A stretch of 27,163 nt of DNA from a virus (lineage: Duplodnaviria; Heunggongvirae; Uroviricota; Caudoviricetes), in the IMG/VR virus record IMGVR_UViG_2531839527_000008; one strand, given 5' to 3'. The notes below the pieces were generated by a model, which was given only the letters and a program-made list of their open reading frames with translations, had not been told where the DNA came from and made no database searches. Positions within the stretch are counted from its first letter, which is position 1, and each line of letters starts with the position of its first letter. This document shows positions 10,371-27,163 of this stretch, piece by piece. The translations under genes and the position numbers were made by a program.

Positions 10371-10604
10371 ATGAGAATCAATATCACGTTGGATAAAGAG
10401 CAAAAAATTAGTCAGGCAACATTGGATGCACTTGAGGCTGAACTGTACCGCAATCTTCAACCTATTTACCCAAAGACTGCTATCCGAATTCGCAAGGGCT
10501 CCGCTAATGGCGTTGAACTAAGCGGTTTGAAACTGGACGAAGATAAAAAACGAGTAATGGAAATCATGCAGCAGGTATGGGAGGACGATAGCTGGCTGCA
10601 TTAA
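10371..10604 (+). CDS. DinI-family protein (Tum/antirepressor-like C-terminal domain)
   Basis: MRINITLDKEQ...AIRIRKGSANGVELSGLKLDEDKKRVMEIMQQVWEDDSWLH resembles remembered DinI. Confidence 0.8.
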   Translation: MRINITLDKEQKISQATLDALEAELYRNLQPIYPKTAIRIRKGSANGVELSGLKLDEDKKRVMEIMQQVWEDDSWLH

Positions 10605-11142: not shown

Positions 11143-11337
11143 ATGCAAAATCCCCTTTCATCGAAAAATGACCCGTTTGCCGATTGGGCAAAGAATCTGA
11201 CTTTAATGGCTTTAAATAACGACCTGAGCTCTCGCGAGGGGGAAAGCTACACCGCAAAAATGGTCGGGCAGGCCGGTAAAGATGAGCTATCAGTCGTTAT
11301 CAAACACCTGTTAAATCACATCAGAATGCGCAAATAA
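11143..11337 (+). CDS. hypothetical small protein
   Basis: Internal ATG 11143 with GAGG upstream preferred over ORF-track start 11053, which lies inside repeat copy 2. Confidence 0.35.
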   Translation: MQNPLSSKNDPFADWAKNLTLMALNNDLSSREGESYTAKMVGQAGKDELSVVIKHLLNHIRMRK

Positions 11338-11901: not shown

Positions 11902-12906
11902 CTAATTTACATGTATGTAGAGTTCACCGTCGCCAGACCAATCGGGACACTCTAAAACAAGCCCAAACTGCTTGAATATTTCATCAATGATTATTGTTAT
12001 CTCCCGAAAATCACCAAAACCTGTAATGTGCTGGTCATTAAACTTCCCATAAAGATTCTGAAAAGCAATGCCTAATTCTGATAATTGATATCTTATCTTT
12101 GAGTTGGATAGTGTAAGGGATAGCTTTGGATCGTATTCTTTAATATTGATGTTTAGAGAATGGACATAACCCATCGCATAAGCATAAGAGTTGATGATTA
12201 GCCTGATACGTTTTTTTACTTCAAGATACATGTCATTCAGAGAAATATTACCGTACTTATAACCCCAGATGAGTTTTTCAATCTCGTCAGATACTTCATT
12301 TACAACAGTGTCAAGATTCTCTAAAAATAAATCGACAGTTTCTTGAGGGGCAGACCCCGAAGACATGTAATTAGCGAGATATTCAGACCATGCACGCGTG
12401 GCTGAGATAAGAAGCGCGCTACCATACTCGTTGACTGTAAAGTTTTGGGCTAAGCATGTTAGTAAGTTTTTTTCATGTACGTGCACTAATTCATGGTGAA
12501 TGCGATGGATGACTGCGAGGTATCCTTCTTCTTTCAGTTTTAAGAAGCTACCATCATTGAAAAGCTCAACAAAAAAATCAATCGATAGCACAAGGGTATA
12601 TTCTTCATATAGCCCATCATTGCCAATTTTTGTTACTAACTGCCCGACGGCTGCGCCCTGTTTGCTATTGGTAAATGAACTAGGGGATTTGTGTTGGTAA
12701 GAGGATGTTACCTTTTGAAGAGCTTCACTGAAGTTATAGGAAACAATCACGCATTTTAATTTGGAGATATCAAGATTGAGATTCTTTGTTAAAGCTCGGA
12801 TAGCTTCTAGTGTGAAATTACCGATATTATTTGCTTCTTGCTCAGTAGCGAAACCTTCGAGGGTTATTTTAAAATCAGTTTCCAAAATATTAATCTCCGC
12901 GCCCAT
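11902..12906 (-). CDS. AT-rich cargo protein with HExxH motif (putative zinc metallo-hydrolase), candidate defence/exclusion gene
   Basis: 334-aa ORF in visibly AT-rich DNA inserted between cos and portal gene; IHRIHHELVHVHE with HELVH encoded at 12481..12495 (minus). Confidence 0.6.
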   Translation of the reverse strand: MGAEINILETDFKITLEGFATEQEANNIGNFTLEAIRALTKNLNLDISKLKCVIVSYNFSEALQKVTSSYQHKSPSSFTNSKQGAAVGQLVTKIGNDGLYEEYTLVLSIDFFVELFNDGSFLKLKEEGYLAVIHRIHHELVHVHEKNLLTCLAQNFTVNEYGSALLISATRAWSEYLANYMSSGSAPQETVDLFLENLDTVVNEVSDEIEKLIWGYKYGNISLNDMYLEVKKRIRLIINSYAYAMGYVHSLNINIKEYDPKLSLTLSNSKIRYQLSELGIAFQNLYGKFNDQHITGFGDFREITIIIDEIFKQFGLVLECPDWSGDGELYIHVN

Positions 12907-21858: not shown

Positions 21859-22734
21859 CTAGCCTCGTAAATATCGTTTAGTAAATTTCGTGTTTGGTCT
21901 GGATGATAGGATTTGTCTTTCTATTTCACTATCACAGTCTATATAGTCTAGTGTATTAGCTTCTATAAGTTTGTTCACGTCAATATTTTTTGCATCGATT
22001 ATGTTGGCATTTCTAAGGTTTGCATTGGTGTATTCCACTTTATCCAAATCACACTCTCTGAGTACGCAACTTTTCATTTCCGCATTGGAAAAATCCCCAC
22101 CATATAAATAGCAGCCTTCAAAAATAACACCGTTTAACTTTGAATCCTGAGCTTTAATATTTTTTATTTTACACTTTATAAATTTTACGTTTTTCATTTT
22201 GCTCTTGCTAATATTTAATGCCTGGATTGTACATCCAGTGAAAGAACAGTCTCTTATGTTAGATTTTTCCATATTTAACCCAGATAGTTCTGAGGTTTTA
22301 AAGTGTAAGTATTTAATGGTAAAAAGGTCACCCAACTCCATTCTGGGTATGTCTATATTGAAGACACCTTTATTGTTGAGCTGTCTTATTATTTTTATTT
22401 TTTGTATTTTCAAATCAACATTAACGTGCTTAGCTAAGTTTCCCAAATCCTCAAGAAGTTCATTAATCGTTTCTTTGTTTTGTCTTCTGTATTCAAAGTA
22501 ATAAAGGATGACACCTAATACAAAAAAATCCAAAATGGATGAATTTGCATTTATTAGGAACCCAGACAGGAATGAATCATTGTAATTACCATAGTGTATA
22601 GAGGCAAGTGTTACGCCAAATGCATATAAAATAAAAATAATAAACACGTGCTTCATTTTGCATAAGGATTGTATTATTGGTTTTATGGCATCAATTTTGT
22701 TCATTGCTGCAGCAGCGAAAGATTTAAAAGTCAT
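21859..22734 (-). CDS. AT-rich cargo membrane protein with C-terminal pentapeptide-repeat domain
   Basis: 291 aa; two hydrophobic helices near N-terminus (HVFIIFILYAFGVTLASI, FLSGFLINANSSILDFFVLGVILYYF); tandem A(N/D)LxN-like pentapeptides (…TNANLRNANIIDAKNIDVNKL…); occupies the S-V junction on the opposite strand. Confidence 0.6.
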   Translation of the reverse strand: MTFKSFAAAAMNKIDAIKPIIQSLCKMKHVFIIFILYAFGVTLASIHYGNYNDSFLSGFLINANSSILDFFVLGVILYYFEYRRQNKETINELLEDLGNLAKHVNVDLKIQKIKIIRQLNNKGVFNIDIPRMELGDLFTIKYLHFKTSELSGLNMEKSNIRDCSFTGCTIQALNISKSKMKNVKFIKCKIKNIKAQDSKLNGVIFEGCYLYGGDFSNAEMKSCVLRECDLDKVEYTNANLRNANIIDAKNIDVNKLIEANTLDYIDCDSEIERQILSSRPNTKFTKRYLRG

Positions 22735-24782: not shown

Positions 24783-25383
24783 CCGGCTATTACCCGTTGG
24801 CTCGTCGCCGCTGGAGGTTGCCGCCGCTGCCGCGCTCTCTGAGATTCAGCGTGTGCCGGTACCGCTGCGCACTCTGTGGAACTGGCGCACCTGCCCGGTA
24901 AAACTGCTGCCGTATCTGGCGTGGGCGCTGTCGGTCGACAGGTGGGATGAGAAATGGCCGGAGGCGACAAAGCGTAGCGTCTGCGCGTCCTCGTTTTTCG
25001 TCCATCAGCACAAAGGCACCATTAGCGCATTGCGTCGGGTGGTTGAGCCGCTCGGCTTTCTGATTGAAGTGCGCGAGTGGTGGCAGCTCAACGAGGAGCC
25101 AGGCACATTCCGCCTCGTTGTCGGCGTGCTCGATAGCGGCATTACTGACGAAATGTATCAGGAGCTTGAGCGCCTGATTGAAGACGCCAAACCGGCAAGT
25201 CGCCACCTGACCGGGCTGGCTATCAGTCTGAGCTCGACCGGCGAACTGTATGTCGGCGCGGGATGCTATCACGGCGACGCGCTGACTGTTTACCCCTACA
25301 CCCCCGAGGAGATTGTCGTCGGCGGTGAATATTACCCGGCCTCGGCCATCCATTTGATTGATAACCTGAGAGTGAACGCATGA
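24775..25383 (+). CDS. I: baseplate/tail protein I (P2 gpI family)
   Basis: 202 aa; overlaps J stop and H start. Confidence 0.82.
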   Translation: MNDRLLPVGSSPLEVAAAAALSEIQRVPVPLRTLWNWRTCPVKLLPYLAWALSVDRWDEKWPEATKRSVCASSFFVHQHKGTISALRRVVEPLGFLIEVREWWQLNEEPGTFRLVVGVLDSGITDEMYQELERLIEDAKPASRHLTGLAISLSSTGELYVGAGCYHGDALTVYPYTPEEIVVGGEYYPASAIHLIDNLRVNA

Positions 25384-26336
25384 CCGCAAAATATTTTGCC
25401 ATTCTGACCAATCAGGGCGCGGCGCGGCTGGCGAACGCGGCGGCACTCGGTACCAAACTCAACCTGACGCAGATGGCCGTCGGTGATGCGAATGGTACGT
25501 TGCCGACCCCTGACCCGGCGCAGACGAAGCTCATTAACCAGAAACGCATCGCGCCGCTGAACCTGCTGACCGTTGACCCGGCCAATACCAGTCAGATTAT
25601 CGCGGAACAGATTATTCCCGAGAATGAAGGTGGTTTCTGGATCCGCGAGATTGGTCTCTATGACGATGATGGTATTCTGATTGCCGTGGCGAACTGTCCG
25701 GAGACCTACAAGCCACAACTGCAGGAGGGAAGCGGTCGCACGCAGACCATTCGCATGATTCTGATTGTGTCGAGCACATCGGCAATCACCCTGAAAATCG
25801 ACCCGGCAGTCGTGCTGGCAACGCGCCAGTATGTCGACGACAAGATTATCGAGGTGAAAGGATATGCTGATGACCTGATGAAAAAACATGTTGAGGCCGC
25901 CAATCCACACAAGCAGTACCCGTTAATCGCTAATGCTCTGAAAGAAATGGTTGACGCGGGACTGGCCGGCGACGTTCTTAAAAACCTTGGTTTGGGGGAA
26001 TTGGCTCTGGCTGGCGCAACAACCGGCGCTATGTTGGTGAATGGGTATGTAGCAATTCCATTAATTATTTCTGGCGTTCGGAGACCACTTATTATCCAGT
26101 GGGGAGTGGGGCAGTTTGGGGGAAGTCTGGGGGATGATGCGGGATATTTAAACAATTTCCCTTTCGCTTTTCCGTCGGCGTGCTACGTGATGGTTGCCAG
26201 CCACGTGGGGCATACACCTTCGGGTGCCGGAATACTATCTGCTTCCGCAATCACAAAAAGCGGCTTTCGTGGTTTTTCCAGCGTAGCGACTGCCGCAAAT
26301 CCTGTATCGGGCTGTTATGTTGCTATAGGAGGGTGA
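25380..26336 (+). CDS. H: tail fibre protein (P2 gpH-like conserved N-terminal domain plus short variable C-terminal domain)
   Basis: 318 aa; N-terminal MTAKYFAILTNQGAARLANAAALGTKLNLTQMAVGDANG typical of P2-type H; C-terminal part begins at the crossover site. Confidence 0.8.
   Translation: MTAKYFAILTNQGAARLANAAALGTKLNLTQMAVGDANGTLPTPDPAQTKLINQKRIAPLNLLTVDPANTSQIIAEQIIPENEGGFWIREIGLYDDDGILIAVANCPETYKPQLQEGSGRTQTIRMILIVSSTSAITLKIDPAVVLATRQYVDDKIIEVKGYADDLMKKHVEAANPHKQYPLIANALKEMVDAGLAGDVLKNLGLGELALAGATTGAMLVNGYVAIPLIISGVRRPLIIQWGVGQFGGSLGDDAGYLNNFPFAFPSACYVMVASHVGHTPSGAGILSASAITKSGFRGFSSVATAANPVSGCYVAIGG
25975..26000. promoter_or_regulatory. Hin/Gin/Cin/Pin-type DNA-invertase crossover site within the tail-fibre gene
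   Basis: TTCTTAAAAACC-TT-GGTTTGGGGGAA: 26-bp site with 12-bp imperfect inverted half-sites, close to remembered hixL TTCTTGAAAACCAAGGTTTTTGATAA. Confidence 0.55.
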
Positions 26337-26337
26337 T

Positions 26338-26772
26338 GTGTTTTTTAGTCCATCTTTAAATATTTTTGTGAATCCTGCGCTTAAGGATGACTACATCAAT
26401 GTAAATTCATGGCCAGATGATGCTGTTGAAGTTGATGAGCAGGTGTATATTGAGTTTTCCGGATTACCGCCGAAAGGAAAAATCCGTATCGCTGGGGAAA
26501 ATGGTTTTCCTGCATGGTCTGAAATTCCACCACCAACGCATGAGGAACAGATTGCCGCAGCCGAATTGAAAAAACAGCAATTGATTAATCAGTCCAACGA
26601 ATATATGAATACCAAGCAATGGCCTGGTAAAGCGGCTATTGGTCGTCTGAAAGGTGAGGAACTGGCGCAATATAATTTGTGGCTGGATTATCTGGACGCA
26701 CTGGAACTGGTTGATACCTCCAGTGCTCCAGATATTGAATGGCCTACGCCTCCGGCAGTTCAGGCCAGATGA
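26338..26772 (+). CDS. tail fibre assembly (chaperone) protein
   Basis: GTG start 5 nt after AGGAGGG; C-terminal LWLDYLDALELVD...APDIEWPTPP motif typical of Tfa/gpG/U proteins. Confidence 0.72.
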   Translation: MFFSPSLNIFVNPALKDDYINVNSWPDDAVEVDEQVYIEFSGLPPKGKIRIAGENGFPAWSEIPPPTHEEQIAAAELKKQQLINQSNEYMNTKQWPGKAAIGRLKGEELAQYNLWLDYLDALELVDTSSAPDIEWPTPPAVQAR

Positions 26773-27163
26773 TATCCGGCGCGGTGCTCGTAACTGTTGC
26801 CGTCACCGCGTCAATGTAATCAAGCACGGCGTTAAGCCGGGTGGTTTCTGCCTGCGTCAGCTTCCGCCCGGCCTGTAATTTCAGCTGAATCAGACTGATG
26901 GAAGCCATTGCAGCATCAATCAGTGACTGGCGCTGTGCTTCTGCCGCTTCTACTGCGGCACCGTGTTGTGCCTCAGTATCTGTCACCCATTTCTCACCAT
27001 CCCATTTATCATATGGCGTTAACGGTGAAAGCGTGACATAACCGTTTTTGATGGCACCGATATAATCCACTGTAACAGCAGCACCATTTTCGATTGAGTA
27101 AACAGTCTCATTGCGATGGTCTTCTTCATGGCTCCATCCCTTACCTGTAAATACTGCCACTCT
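26744..27163 (-). CDS. second tail fibre assembly protein on the opposite strand (alternative Tfa of an invertible segment), 5' end beyond window
   Basis: C-terminus LNAVLDYIDAVTATVTSTAPDIIWPELPEA parallels the + strand Tfa; convergent and overlapping with it at 26744..26772. Confidence 0.6.
   Translation of the reverse strand, partial: RVAVFTGKGWSHEEDHRNETVYSIENGAAVTVDYIGAIKNGYVTLSPLTPYDKWDGEKWVTDTEAQHGAAVEAAEAQRQSLIDAAMASISLIQLKLQAGRKLTQAETTRLNAVLDYIDAVTATVTSTAPDIIWPELPEA

Follow-up and report, generated by a model that had tools for sequence, protein, structure and literature searches.

The right-hand end of the DNA stretch analysed here (the window, 27,163 nt) appears to be the left two-thirds of a Din-type (Gin/Cin/Pin/Hin) invertible tail-fibre cassette, with at least one past inversion in this prophage lineage, a reading that is given a probability of about 0.85. 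Two crossover sites bound the segment, the fibre gene is fused in frame across them, and both orientations are found in clonal sister prophages, with the half-sites swapped at the centre. Its descent and architecture place the locus in this family, and it is best called orphaned, that is, a segment without its own enzyme. An earlier note on this DNA had suggested an invertible segment with alternative fibre-chaperone pairs; the second tip, right site and invertase gene found in Escherichia coli E1739, together with a flipped copy in E. coli E1535, bear this out.

The window and its near-identical relatives

The window matches the chromosome of E. coli E1739 without gaps over all 27,163 nt, with 3 mismatches (99.989% identity). 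These lie at 11240, 17092 and 21602, all far from the cassette, and the E1739-private bases at 26773 and 26793 are also present in the window. Thus, the contig can be extended from E1739, and that genome (3 nt different) supplies what lies outside the window, namely the invertase, the right site and the right half of the cassette. Four near-identical prophages were compared (E1739, N21, JKHS016 and E1535), with differences among the sister prophages of at most 3 nt in 5.6 kb.

In E1739, the element is a P2-like prophage inserted after, or next to, yfiB. The baseplate genes V-W-J-I precede the tail-fibre gene H, and the cassette is placed between gene I/H and the sheath gene FI. Past the window end, E1739 carries, in order, the rest of tfa', a fibre C-terminal segment on the minus strand, a short spacer, a pseudogene annotated as 'recombinase family protein', and FI. 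The order H, tfa, convergent tfa', fibre C-terminus lacking an N-terminus, and recombinase gene is common to E1739, N21 and JKHS016. More widely, parts of an H-tfa-tfa' query are matched in 2661 of 5426 complete E. coli genomes, and a convergent tfa pair beside a DNA invertase is seen in many phage records, for example 500465-2 and vB_EcoM-613R3. An assembly artefact was considered and rejected, as several complete genomes, and isolated phages too, have the same arrangement. The features of the locus are collected in Table 1.

Table 1. Features of the fibre locus. Window-equivalent positions lie beyond the window and are from E1739.
Feature	Position	Strand	Description
Tail-fibre gene H, present form	25380..26336	+	ORF, 318 aa; PF12571 and PF21882; RefSeq 'phage tail protein' WP_000125659.1 in E1739
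Left 26-bp crossover site (pix/gix type)	25975-26000	+	TTCTTAAAAACC TT GGTTTGGGGGAA; 12-2-12; centre 25987-25988; inside H codons ~199-207 (LKNLGLGE)
Invertible segment, part in the window	25988..27163		1176 of 1806 bp
Variable fibre tip A (Hv)	25988..26336	+	~115 aa; PF21882; PHROGs 2557, 1396 and 4209 (fibre C-termini); G+C 0.519; first gene part inside the invertible segment
tfa, chaperone cognate to tip A	26338..26772	+	144 aa; GTG start 2 nt past the H stop; PF02413, E 2.8e-35; phrog_188, E 1.5e-61
Tail-to-tail overlap of tfa and tfa', cassette centre	26744..26772	both	29 bp
tfa', chaperone cognate to silent tip B	26744..27163 (window end cuts the gene)	-	PF02413, E 2e-25; phrog_105, E 1.8e-83
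Silent tip B (Hv')	window-equivalent 27337-27793	-	no start codon
Right 26-bp crossover site, inverted	window-equivalent 27781-27806 (10402-10427 of E1739 locus L003)		TTCTCCCAAACC AA CCTTTTAGAAAA; 12-2-12
Invertase pseudogene	window-equivalent 27861-28060

The fibre gene and its two tips

H has the features of a P2-type tail fibre gene: an N-terminal tail-collar fibre domain (PF12571, residues 1-150, E 9e-63 in Pfam) and a position after V-W-J-I. Codons 1 to ~203 make up the constant part, which is outside the invertible segment, and the remainder is variable tip A, in which Pfam places a gp53-like C-terminal domain (PF21882) at residues 237-317. The alternative, tip B, is a 459-nt segment on the minus strand of E1739 that is annotated as missing its N-terminus and overlaps the start of tfa' by one base (TAATG). 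Tip B has no Pfam match at E < 0.01, and is placed among tail-collar fibre tips by PHROGs.

The fibre had previously been described as short, with a compositionally distinct C-terminus. Its length and a drop in G+C stand, from 0.594 in the baseplate genes through 0.543 in the constant part of H to 0.519 in the variable part and 0.41-0.47 in the tfa genes. As a correction to that description, the shift is gradual and begins ahead of the crossover site.

Two convergent chaperone genes

The two open reading frames that meet tail to tail downstream of H are as the earlier note had them, and both encode tail-fibre assembly proteins. Against a PF02413 (Caudo_TAP) cutoff of 22.1 bits, Tfa scores 121.8 bits and Tfa' 89.9 bits, far beyond chance. 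The minus-strand gene is intact in E1739, where it encodes 197 aa from an ATG at window-equivalent 27337 (9365-9958 of L003), with the alternative fibre segment upstream; it is thus not the truncated remnant that had been envisaged as a possible refutation. The 138-aa minus-strand ORF that starts with GTG at 27160 arises only from the cut at the window end. The same 29-bp overlap of the two genes is seen in e14 (tfaP/tfaE, 4518-4546 of locus L008), phage 500465-2 and vB_EcoM-613R3.

As had been noticed from the translations, Tfa and Tfa' share a C-terminal motif and differ elsewhere. Their likeness is confined to the C-terminal ~72 residues (36% identity, E 1e-10, including ...APDIxWP...), and the N-terminal parts are unrelated. 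The two proteins fall in different full-length PHROGs (188 and 105), with only the C-terminal module phrog_3792 in common. The C-terminal half of Tfa is close to e14 TfaP, and that of Tfa' is nearly identical to e14 TfaE. This pattern fits the published domain model, in which Tfa proteins combine a variable fibre-binding N-domain with a conserved C-terminal helical domain (PMC9608196).

Two intact tfa reading frames might also mean that there is no switch, and that both genes are expressed, for one fibre or for two co-expressed fibres. Some phages do have more than one fibre chaperone. Yet what precedes tfa' is a fibre C-terminus that has neither a start codon nor an N-terminal attachment domain, canonical crossover sites bound the segment, and both of its orientations exist. 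A simple consensus scan, which is a weak test, found no sigma-70-like promoter on the minus strand of the cassette; the same type of scan, equally weak, found no terminator at the point where tfa and tfa' converge. Simultaneous use of both chaperones is therefore extremely improbable, and an invertible cassette is preferred.

Crossover sites

A consensus, TTCTCNNAAACCNNGGTTTNNGAGAA, was built from the Gin/Cin/Pin/Hin site family, and up to 3 mismatches to it were allowed. The window holds a single match, at the left site, and none of 100 shuffled sequences gave any. The identical scan recovered only gixL and gixR in Mu, at the annotated boundaries of the G segment, and in e14 of K-12 only the two sites flanking the P segment. 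In the E1739 locus, the left and right sites together form the top-ranked inverted repeat, with centres 1806 bp apart. This 40-nt repeat is matched at 73% of its positions, and its arms are identical without interruption over 10 bp only. The central dinucleotides agree, as AA at the right site is TT on the opposite strand, and the published e14 inverted repeat (PMC12529663) has exactly the sequence of the right site's inner arm, CCTTCTCCCAAACCAA. A point against the assignment is that, beside the central dinucleotide, the right site has CC, the Mu gix sites GG and e14 CG.

The left site is also a boundary of homology with other elements. In vB_EcoM-613R3, homology in the constant part stops at 26000 and is followed by divergence, and homology with E1535 likewise ends at 26000. 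In many genomes that carry the cassette behind a different constant part, homology begins at ~25975. The breakpoints in vB_EcoM-613R3 and in these many genomes are consistent with cassettes being exchanged at the left site.

The inverted state in E1535

Inversion was simulated on the E1739 sequence between the two central dinucleotides, in the 12-2-12 register. In the product, H codons 1 to ~203 are fused in frame to tip B, and tfa' comes next, translationally coupled by TAATG. An in-frame fibre is thus obtained in both orientations, of 318 aa at present and 354 aa when flipped. A 770-nt query for the flip junction found one complete genome, that of E. coli E1535, with a 100% full-length match. 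E1535 aligns with the simulated flip as one collinear block (99.966% over 8770 nt), and with the native order as three blocks, with breakpoints inside the two sites. Its annotation agrees, with a 1065-nt fibre gene followed by tfa' on the plus strand, and tfa and the gp53-like tip on the minus strand. The half-sites are swapped exactly around the centre, as TTCTTAAAAACC TT GGTTTGGGAGAA and TTCCCCCAAACC AA CCTTTTAGAAAA. The exchange point can be narrowed only to the identical 10-bp block TTGGTTTGGG, which holds the central dinucleotide of both sites.

The prophages of E1535 and E1739 have many identical protein accessions, and both genomes carry the IS1::yfiR lesion and the same integration site. 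Thus, the hosts are clonal relatives. The orientation is alike in three of the four sister genomes and opposite in E1535, which is compatible with a rare or single flip event.

It is improbable that this difference arose by RecA-dependent or microhomology recombination between the repeats, or by import of a flipped cassette. An intact invertase was not located in these genomes, and the 10-bp block could be used by any homology-guided event, which would favour a route of this kind. However, that block is the only stretch of uninterrupted identity between the arms and is far below the requirement of RecA recombination, and it coincides with the centre of two canonical 26-bp sites. A diverged imported cassette was also rejected as the source: when the E1535 segment is flipped back, it is identical to N21 and JKHS016 over all 1806 bp, with 1 nt difference from each in 5600. 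Site-specific inversion remains the better account of E1535.

Invertase remnant and possible enzyme in trans

The pseudogene beside the right site retains ~200 nt of the 5' end of an invertase gene; it carries a 1-nt frameshift close to codon 44, and no similarity remains beyond codon ~67. E1739, N21, JKHS016 and E1535 all have this one remnant, and no intact adjacent serine invertase, with a resolvase catalytic domain carrying the Ser nucleophile and a C-terminal HTH, was found in these four prophages. In a relative, TW10598, the gene beside the right site is intact (188 aa, PF00239 and PF02796 (HTH_7)), and its product matches the Gin structure 3UJ3 with an E value of 1e-92. As the lesion is common to all four near-identical prophages, the E1535 flip must have come later than the loss of the invertase.

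The simplest source of enzyme for this flip is an invertase acting in trans, which is considered likely. Cross-reactivity of this kind has been described: the e14 P segment is inverted by PinQ, PinR and PinE alike, while PinE also acts on the Mu G segment and Fin on the Salmonella H segment (PMC12529663). In E1739, e14 is absent at icd and Rac is absent at ttcA. At potB/potC, a lambdoid prophage carries a Mu-like fibre cassette of its own, with only a 64-aa stub of the recombinase, and in Qin, pinQ is cut by IS1 and only a stub is left. A composite query matched three places in each of E1739, E1535 and JKHS016 and two in N21, and its unique part alone matched one. Comparison of these counts indicates 1-2 further invertase-like places per chromosome, with similarity to the 3' part of such a gene, one of which is probably the pinQ stub. 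No intact invertase was located in E1739 at the four chromosomal loci looked at (e14, Rac, the potB/potC prophage and Qin), with one invertase-like place lacking coordinates.

The Fis-dependent enhancer of such systems is ~65 bp long and ~100 bp from the site, in the 5' region of the invertase gene (PMC3798978). Here, it would be expected at about +110 to +175, counted from the centre of the site, and this interval is kept in the invertase remnant. Fis-like 15-mers at +119 and +167 (48 bp apart) are positioned as in gin, but are only suggestive, as the stretch is also coding; a crude Fis-pattern search gave no pair exactly 48 bp apart.

Whether the cassette is still flipping in the genome from which the window comes is judged an even chance. 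It is somewhat less probable, though quite conceivable, that the cassette is a relic that no longer switches and is locked in the tip A state, with E1535 recording one event in the past; this alternative bears only on whether the cassette is active today. Such a relic would be in keeping with the invertase pseudogene in 4/4 prophages, the truncation of two other Din invertase loci in E1739, and the common orientation of 3/4 genomes. Decay of the module is also common elsewhere, as the 52F4 invertase is frameshifted and the left site and H of TW10598 are hit by a 1-nt deletion. On the other hand, a flip later than the loss of the invertase means that an enzyme in trans could still use the sites at that time, the two sites and the two reading frames have survived undamaged in E1739 and E1535, and each chromosome has the further invertase-like places described above. 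Inversion at least once in the lineage is the preferred reading whichever of these applies today.

Relationship to known invertible cassettes

The closest match is the e14 P segment with PinE of E. coli K-12, which has the same order: stfP, tfaP, convergent tfaE with the stfE C-terminus, and pin. The two share the 29-bp tfa overlap and are similar in length (1797 bp in e14, 1806 bp here), and both fibre tips are from the same two families. The e14 sites are nearly identical to those found here (CTCTCGAAAACC TT GGTTTGGGAGAA and TTCTCCCAAACC AA CGTTTATGAAAA), and the DNA is 87.5% identical over the central 432 nt, which cover the C-terminal halves of both chaperones. However, no DNA-level alignment is possible for the tips or for the N-terminal half of either chaperone. 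The carrier also differs, being a lambdoid remnant in the case of e14 and a complete-looking P2-like prophage here, where the fibre has a P2 H-type N-terminus (PF12571) as its constant part. Finally, pinE is intact in K-12, whereas the resident invertase here is a pseudogene.

Mu G/Gin, and likewise P1 C/Cin, have a constant fibre part (Sc) and a crossover site inside the fibre gene. As here, Mu has two tip-plus-chaperone cassettes in opposite orientation (Sv-U and S'v-U'), 12-2-12 sites, and an invertase gene just outside the right-hand site. The Mu segment is longer, however, at 3 kb, and its chaperone genes are separated by a 28-nt gap. No cassette DNA similarity to Mu is detectable; only the 5' part of the invertase is similar (72% over 198 nt).

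Fibre loci of other P2-like prophages, for example in EPEC E2348/69 and in Salmonella (Fels-2, Fin), have the same type of carrier and the same position, from I/H to FI. Such loci have been found by sequencing and PCR to flip within EPEC cultures (PMC4272514). The present cassette has two sites, in contrast to one EPEC locus with its three repeats and four variants. Compared with these loci, it is also distinguished by its particular tip pair and by the loss of its own invertase.

Proposed mechanism and implications

Late transcription is expected to read V-W-J-I-H-tfa, with the H reading frame passing through the left site from the baseplate-proximal constant part into the cassette. In the present orientation, H would end in the gp53-like receptor-binding tip, followed by its chaperone Tfa, while the other half of the cassette, the start-less tail-collar-type tip with its chaperone Tfa', would be silent on the opposite strand. 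As in the homologous Gin, Hin and Pin systems, the two inverted sites would each be bound by a dimer of a serine invertase, which would cut at the TT/AA centre, rotate the strands by 180 degrees and religate them. The flip would fuse the constant part of H to tip B (354 aa) and put tfa' behind it. One prophage could in this way give rise to virions of two receptor specificities, a host-range consequence that is predicted from the precedents of Mu, P1 and P2-like phages.

Din-type invertible fibre cassettes are a well-known, textbook-type system, and the locus is of little significance as a discovery in that respect. For annotation, it means that the short fibre gene represents just one of two possible versions, that the downstream 'partial' fibre gene is a silent alternative tip and not junk, and that assemblies of this prophage differ in orientation for biological reasons. 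The one feature out of the ordinary is that the cassette inverted after its cognate invertase had been lost, which adds a natural example to reports of Pin-type invertases acting across prophages. As the E1535 flip is later than the invertase deletion, within one clonal ETEC lineage, it is tempting, although speculative and on balance doubtful, to suggest that an orphan cassette may stay switchable through the invertases of other prophages after losing its own. StfE2 of e14 is reportedly beneficial to the host against phage T2. If the suggestion is true, the choice of fibre would depend on a cross-prophage recombinase network, as possibly would a host-beneficial product of the flipped form.

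Other invertase genes and fibre modules

A lambdoid prophage that separates potC from potB in the chromosome of the near-identical genome E1739 carries another fibre cassette, a Mu G-type one. Its gene order is fibre, tail-fibre assembly gene (tfa), convergent tfa and fibre C-terminus, followed by a recombinase stub of only 64 aa. An IS1 insertion has cut short the pinQ-like recombinase gene in the Qin remnant; therefore, at least three Din-type invertase (Gin/Cin/Pin/Hin family) genes have decayed in this single chromosome. The relative TW10598 retains an intact invertase, yet its module is damaged in another way: a 1-nt deletion in a G-run of the left crossover site (about 6596-6621 of L004, a stretch of TW10598) frameshifts the tail-fibre gene H and changes the site itself.

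Features of the window and of E1739 chromosome stretches L012 and L014
Feature	Coordinates	Strand	Setting
IS1 copy	window 1-265	minus	interrupts yfiR
yfiR 3' stub, 102 nt	window 322-423		all that remains of yfiR after IS1
dgcN/yfiN	window 413-1639		yfiR stub directly upstream; yfiB also in this neighbourhood
269-aa hypothetical protein gene	window 2590-3399	plus	between yfiB and prophage integrase
334-aa protein gene	window 11902-12906	minus	between replication region and portal gene of P2-like prophage
Pentapeptide-repeat protein gene, 291 aa	window 21859-22734	minus	between tail-completion genes and baseplate gene V
Second fibre cassette, Mu G type	L012 27952-33356 (E1739 chromosome 1242952-1248356)		lambdoid prophage
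pinQ-like recombinase gene	L014 35630-35980 (E1739 chromosome 1675630-1675980)		Qin remnant; truncated by IS1

Accessory genes and the yfiR lesion

The window differs from E1739 only at positions 11240, 17092 and 21602, with G in the window versus T in E1739 in all three cases. Within the prophage, the pentapeptide-repeat gene is oriented opposite to the genes on either side, and is a moron-like insertion that is also found in related prophages. The 334-aa protein, which has no match in Pfam or PADLOC, is encoded in the interval from the replication region to the portal gene, a frequent cargo position in P2-like phages. The 269-aa protein has no Pfam match, and its sole PADLOC match is a weak one to RTasHEPN (E 1.2e-4), a HEPN-like domain found in a DRT system.

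At the left edge of the window, the IS1 lesion in yfiR is shared with E1535, the clonal sister strain with the fibre cassette flipped. YfiR is the periplasmic repressor of the diguanylate cyclase DgcN/YfiN and, because its gene is cut by IS1, c-di-GMP signalling in the strain may be deregulated.
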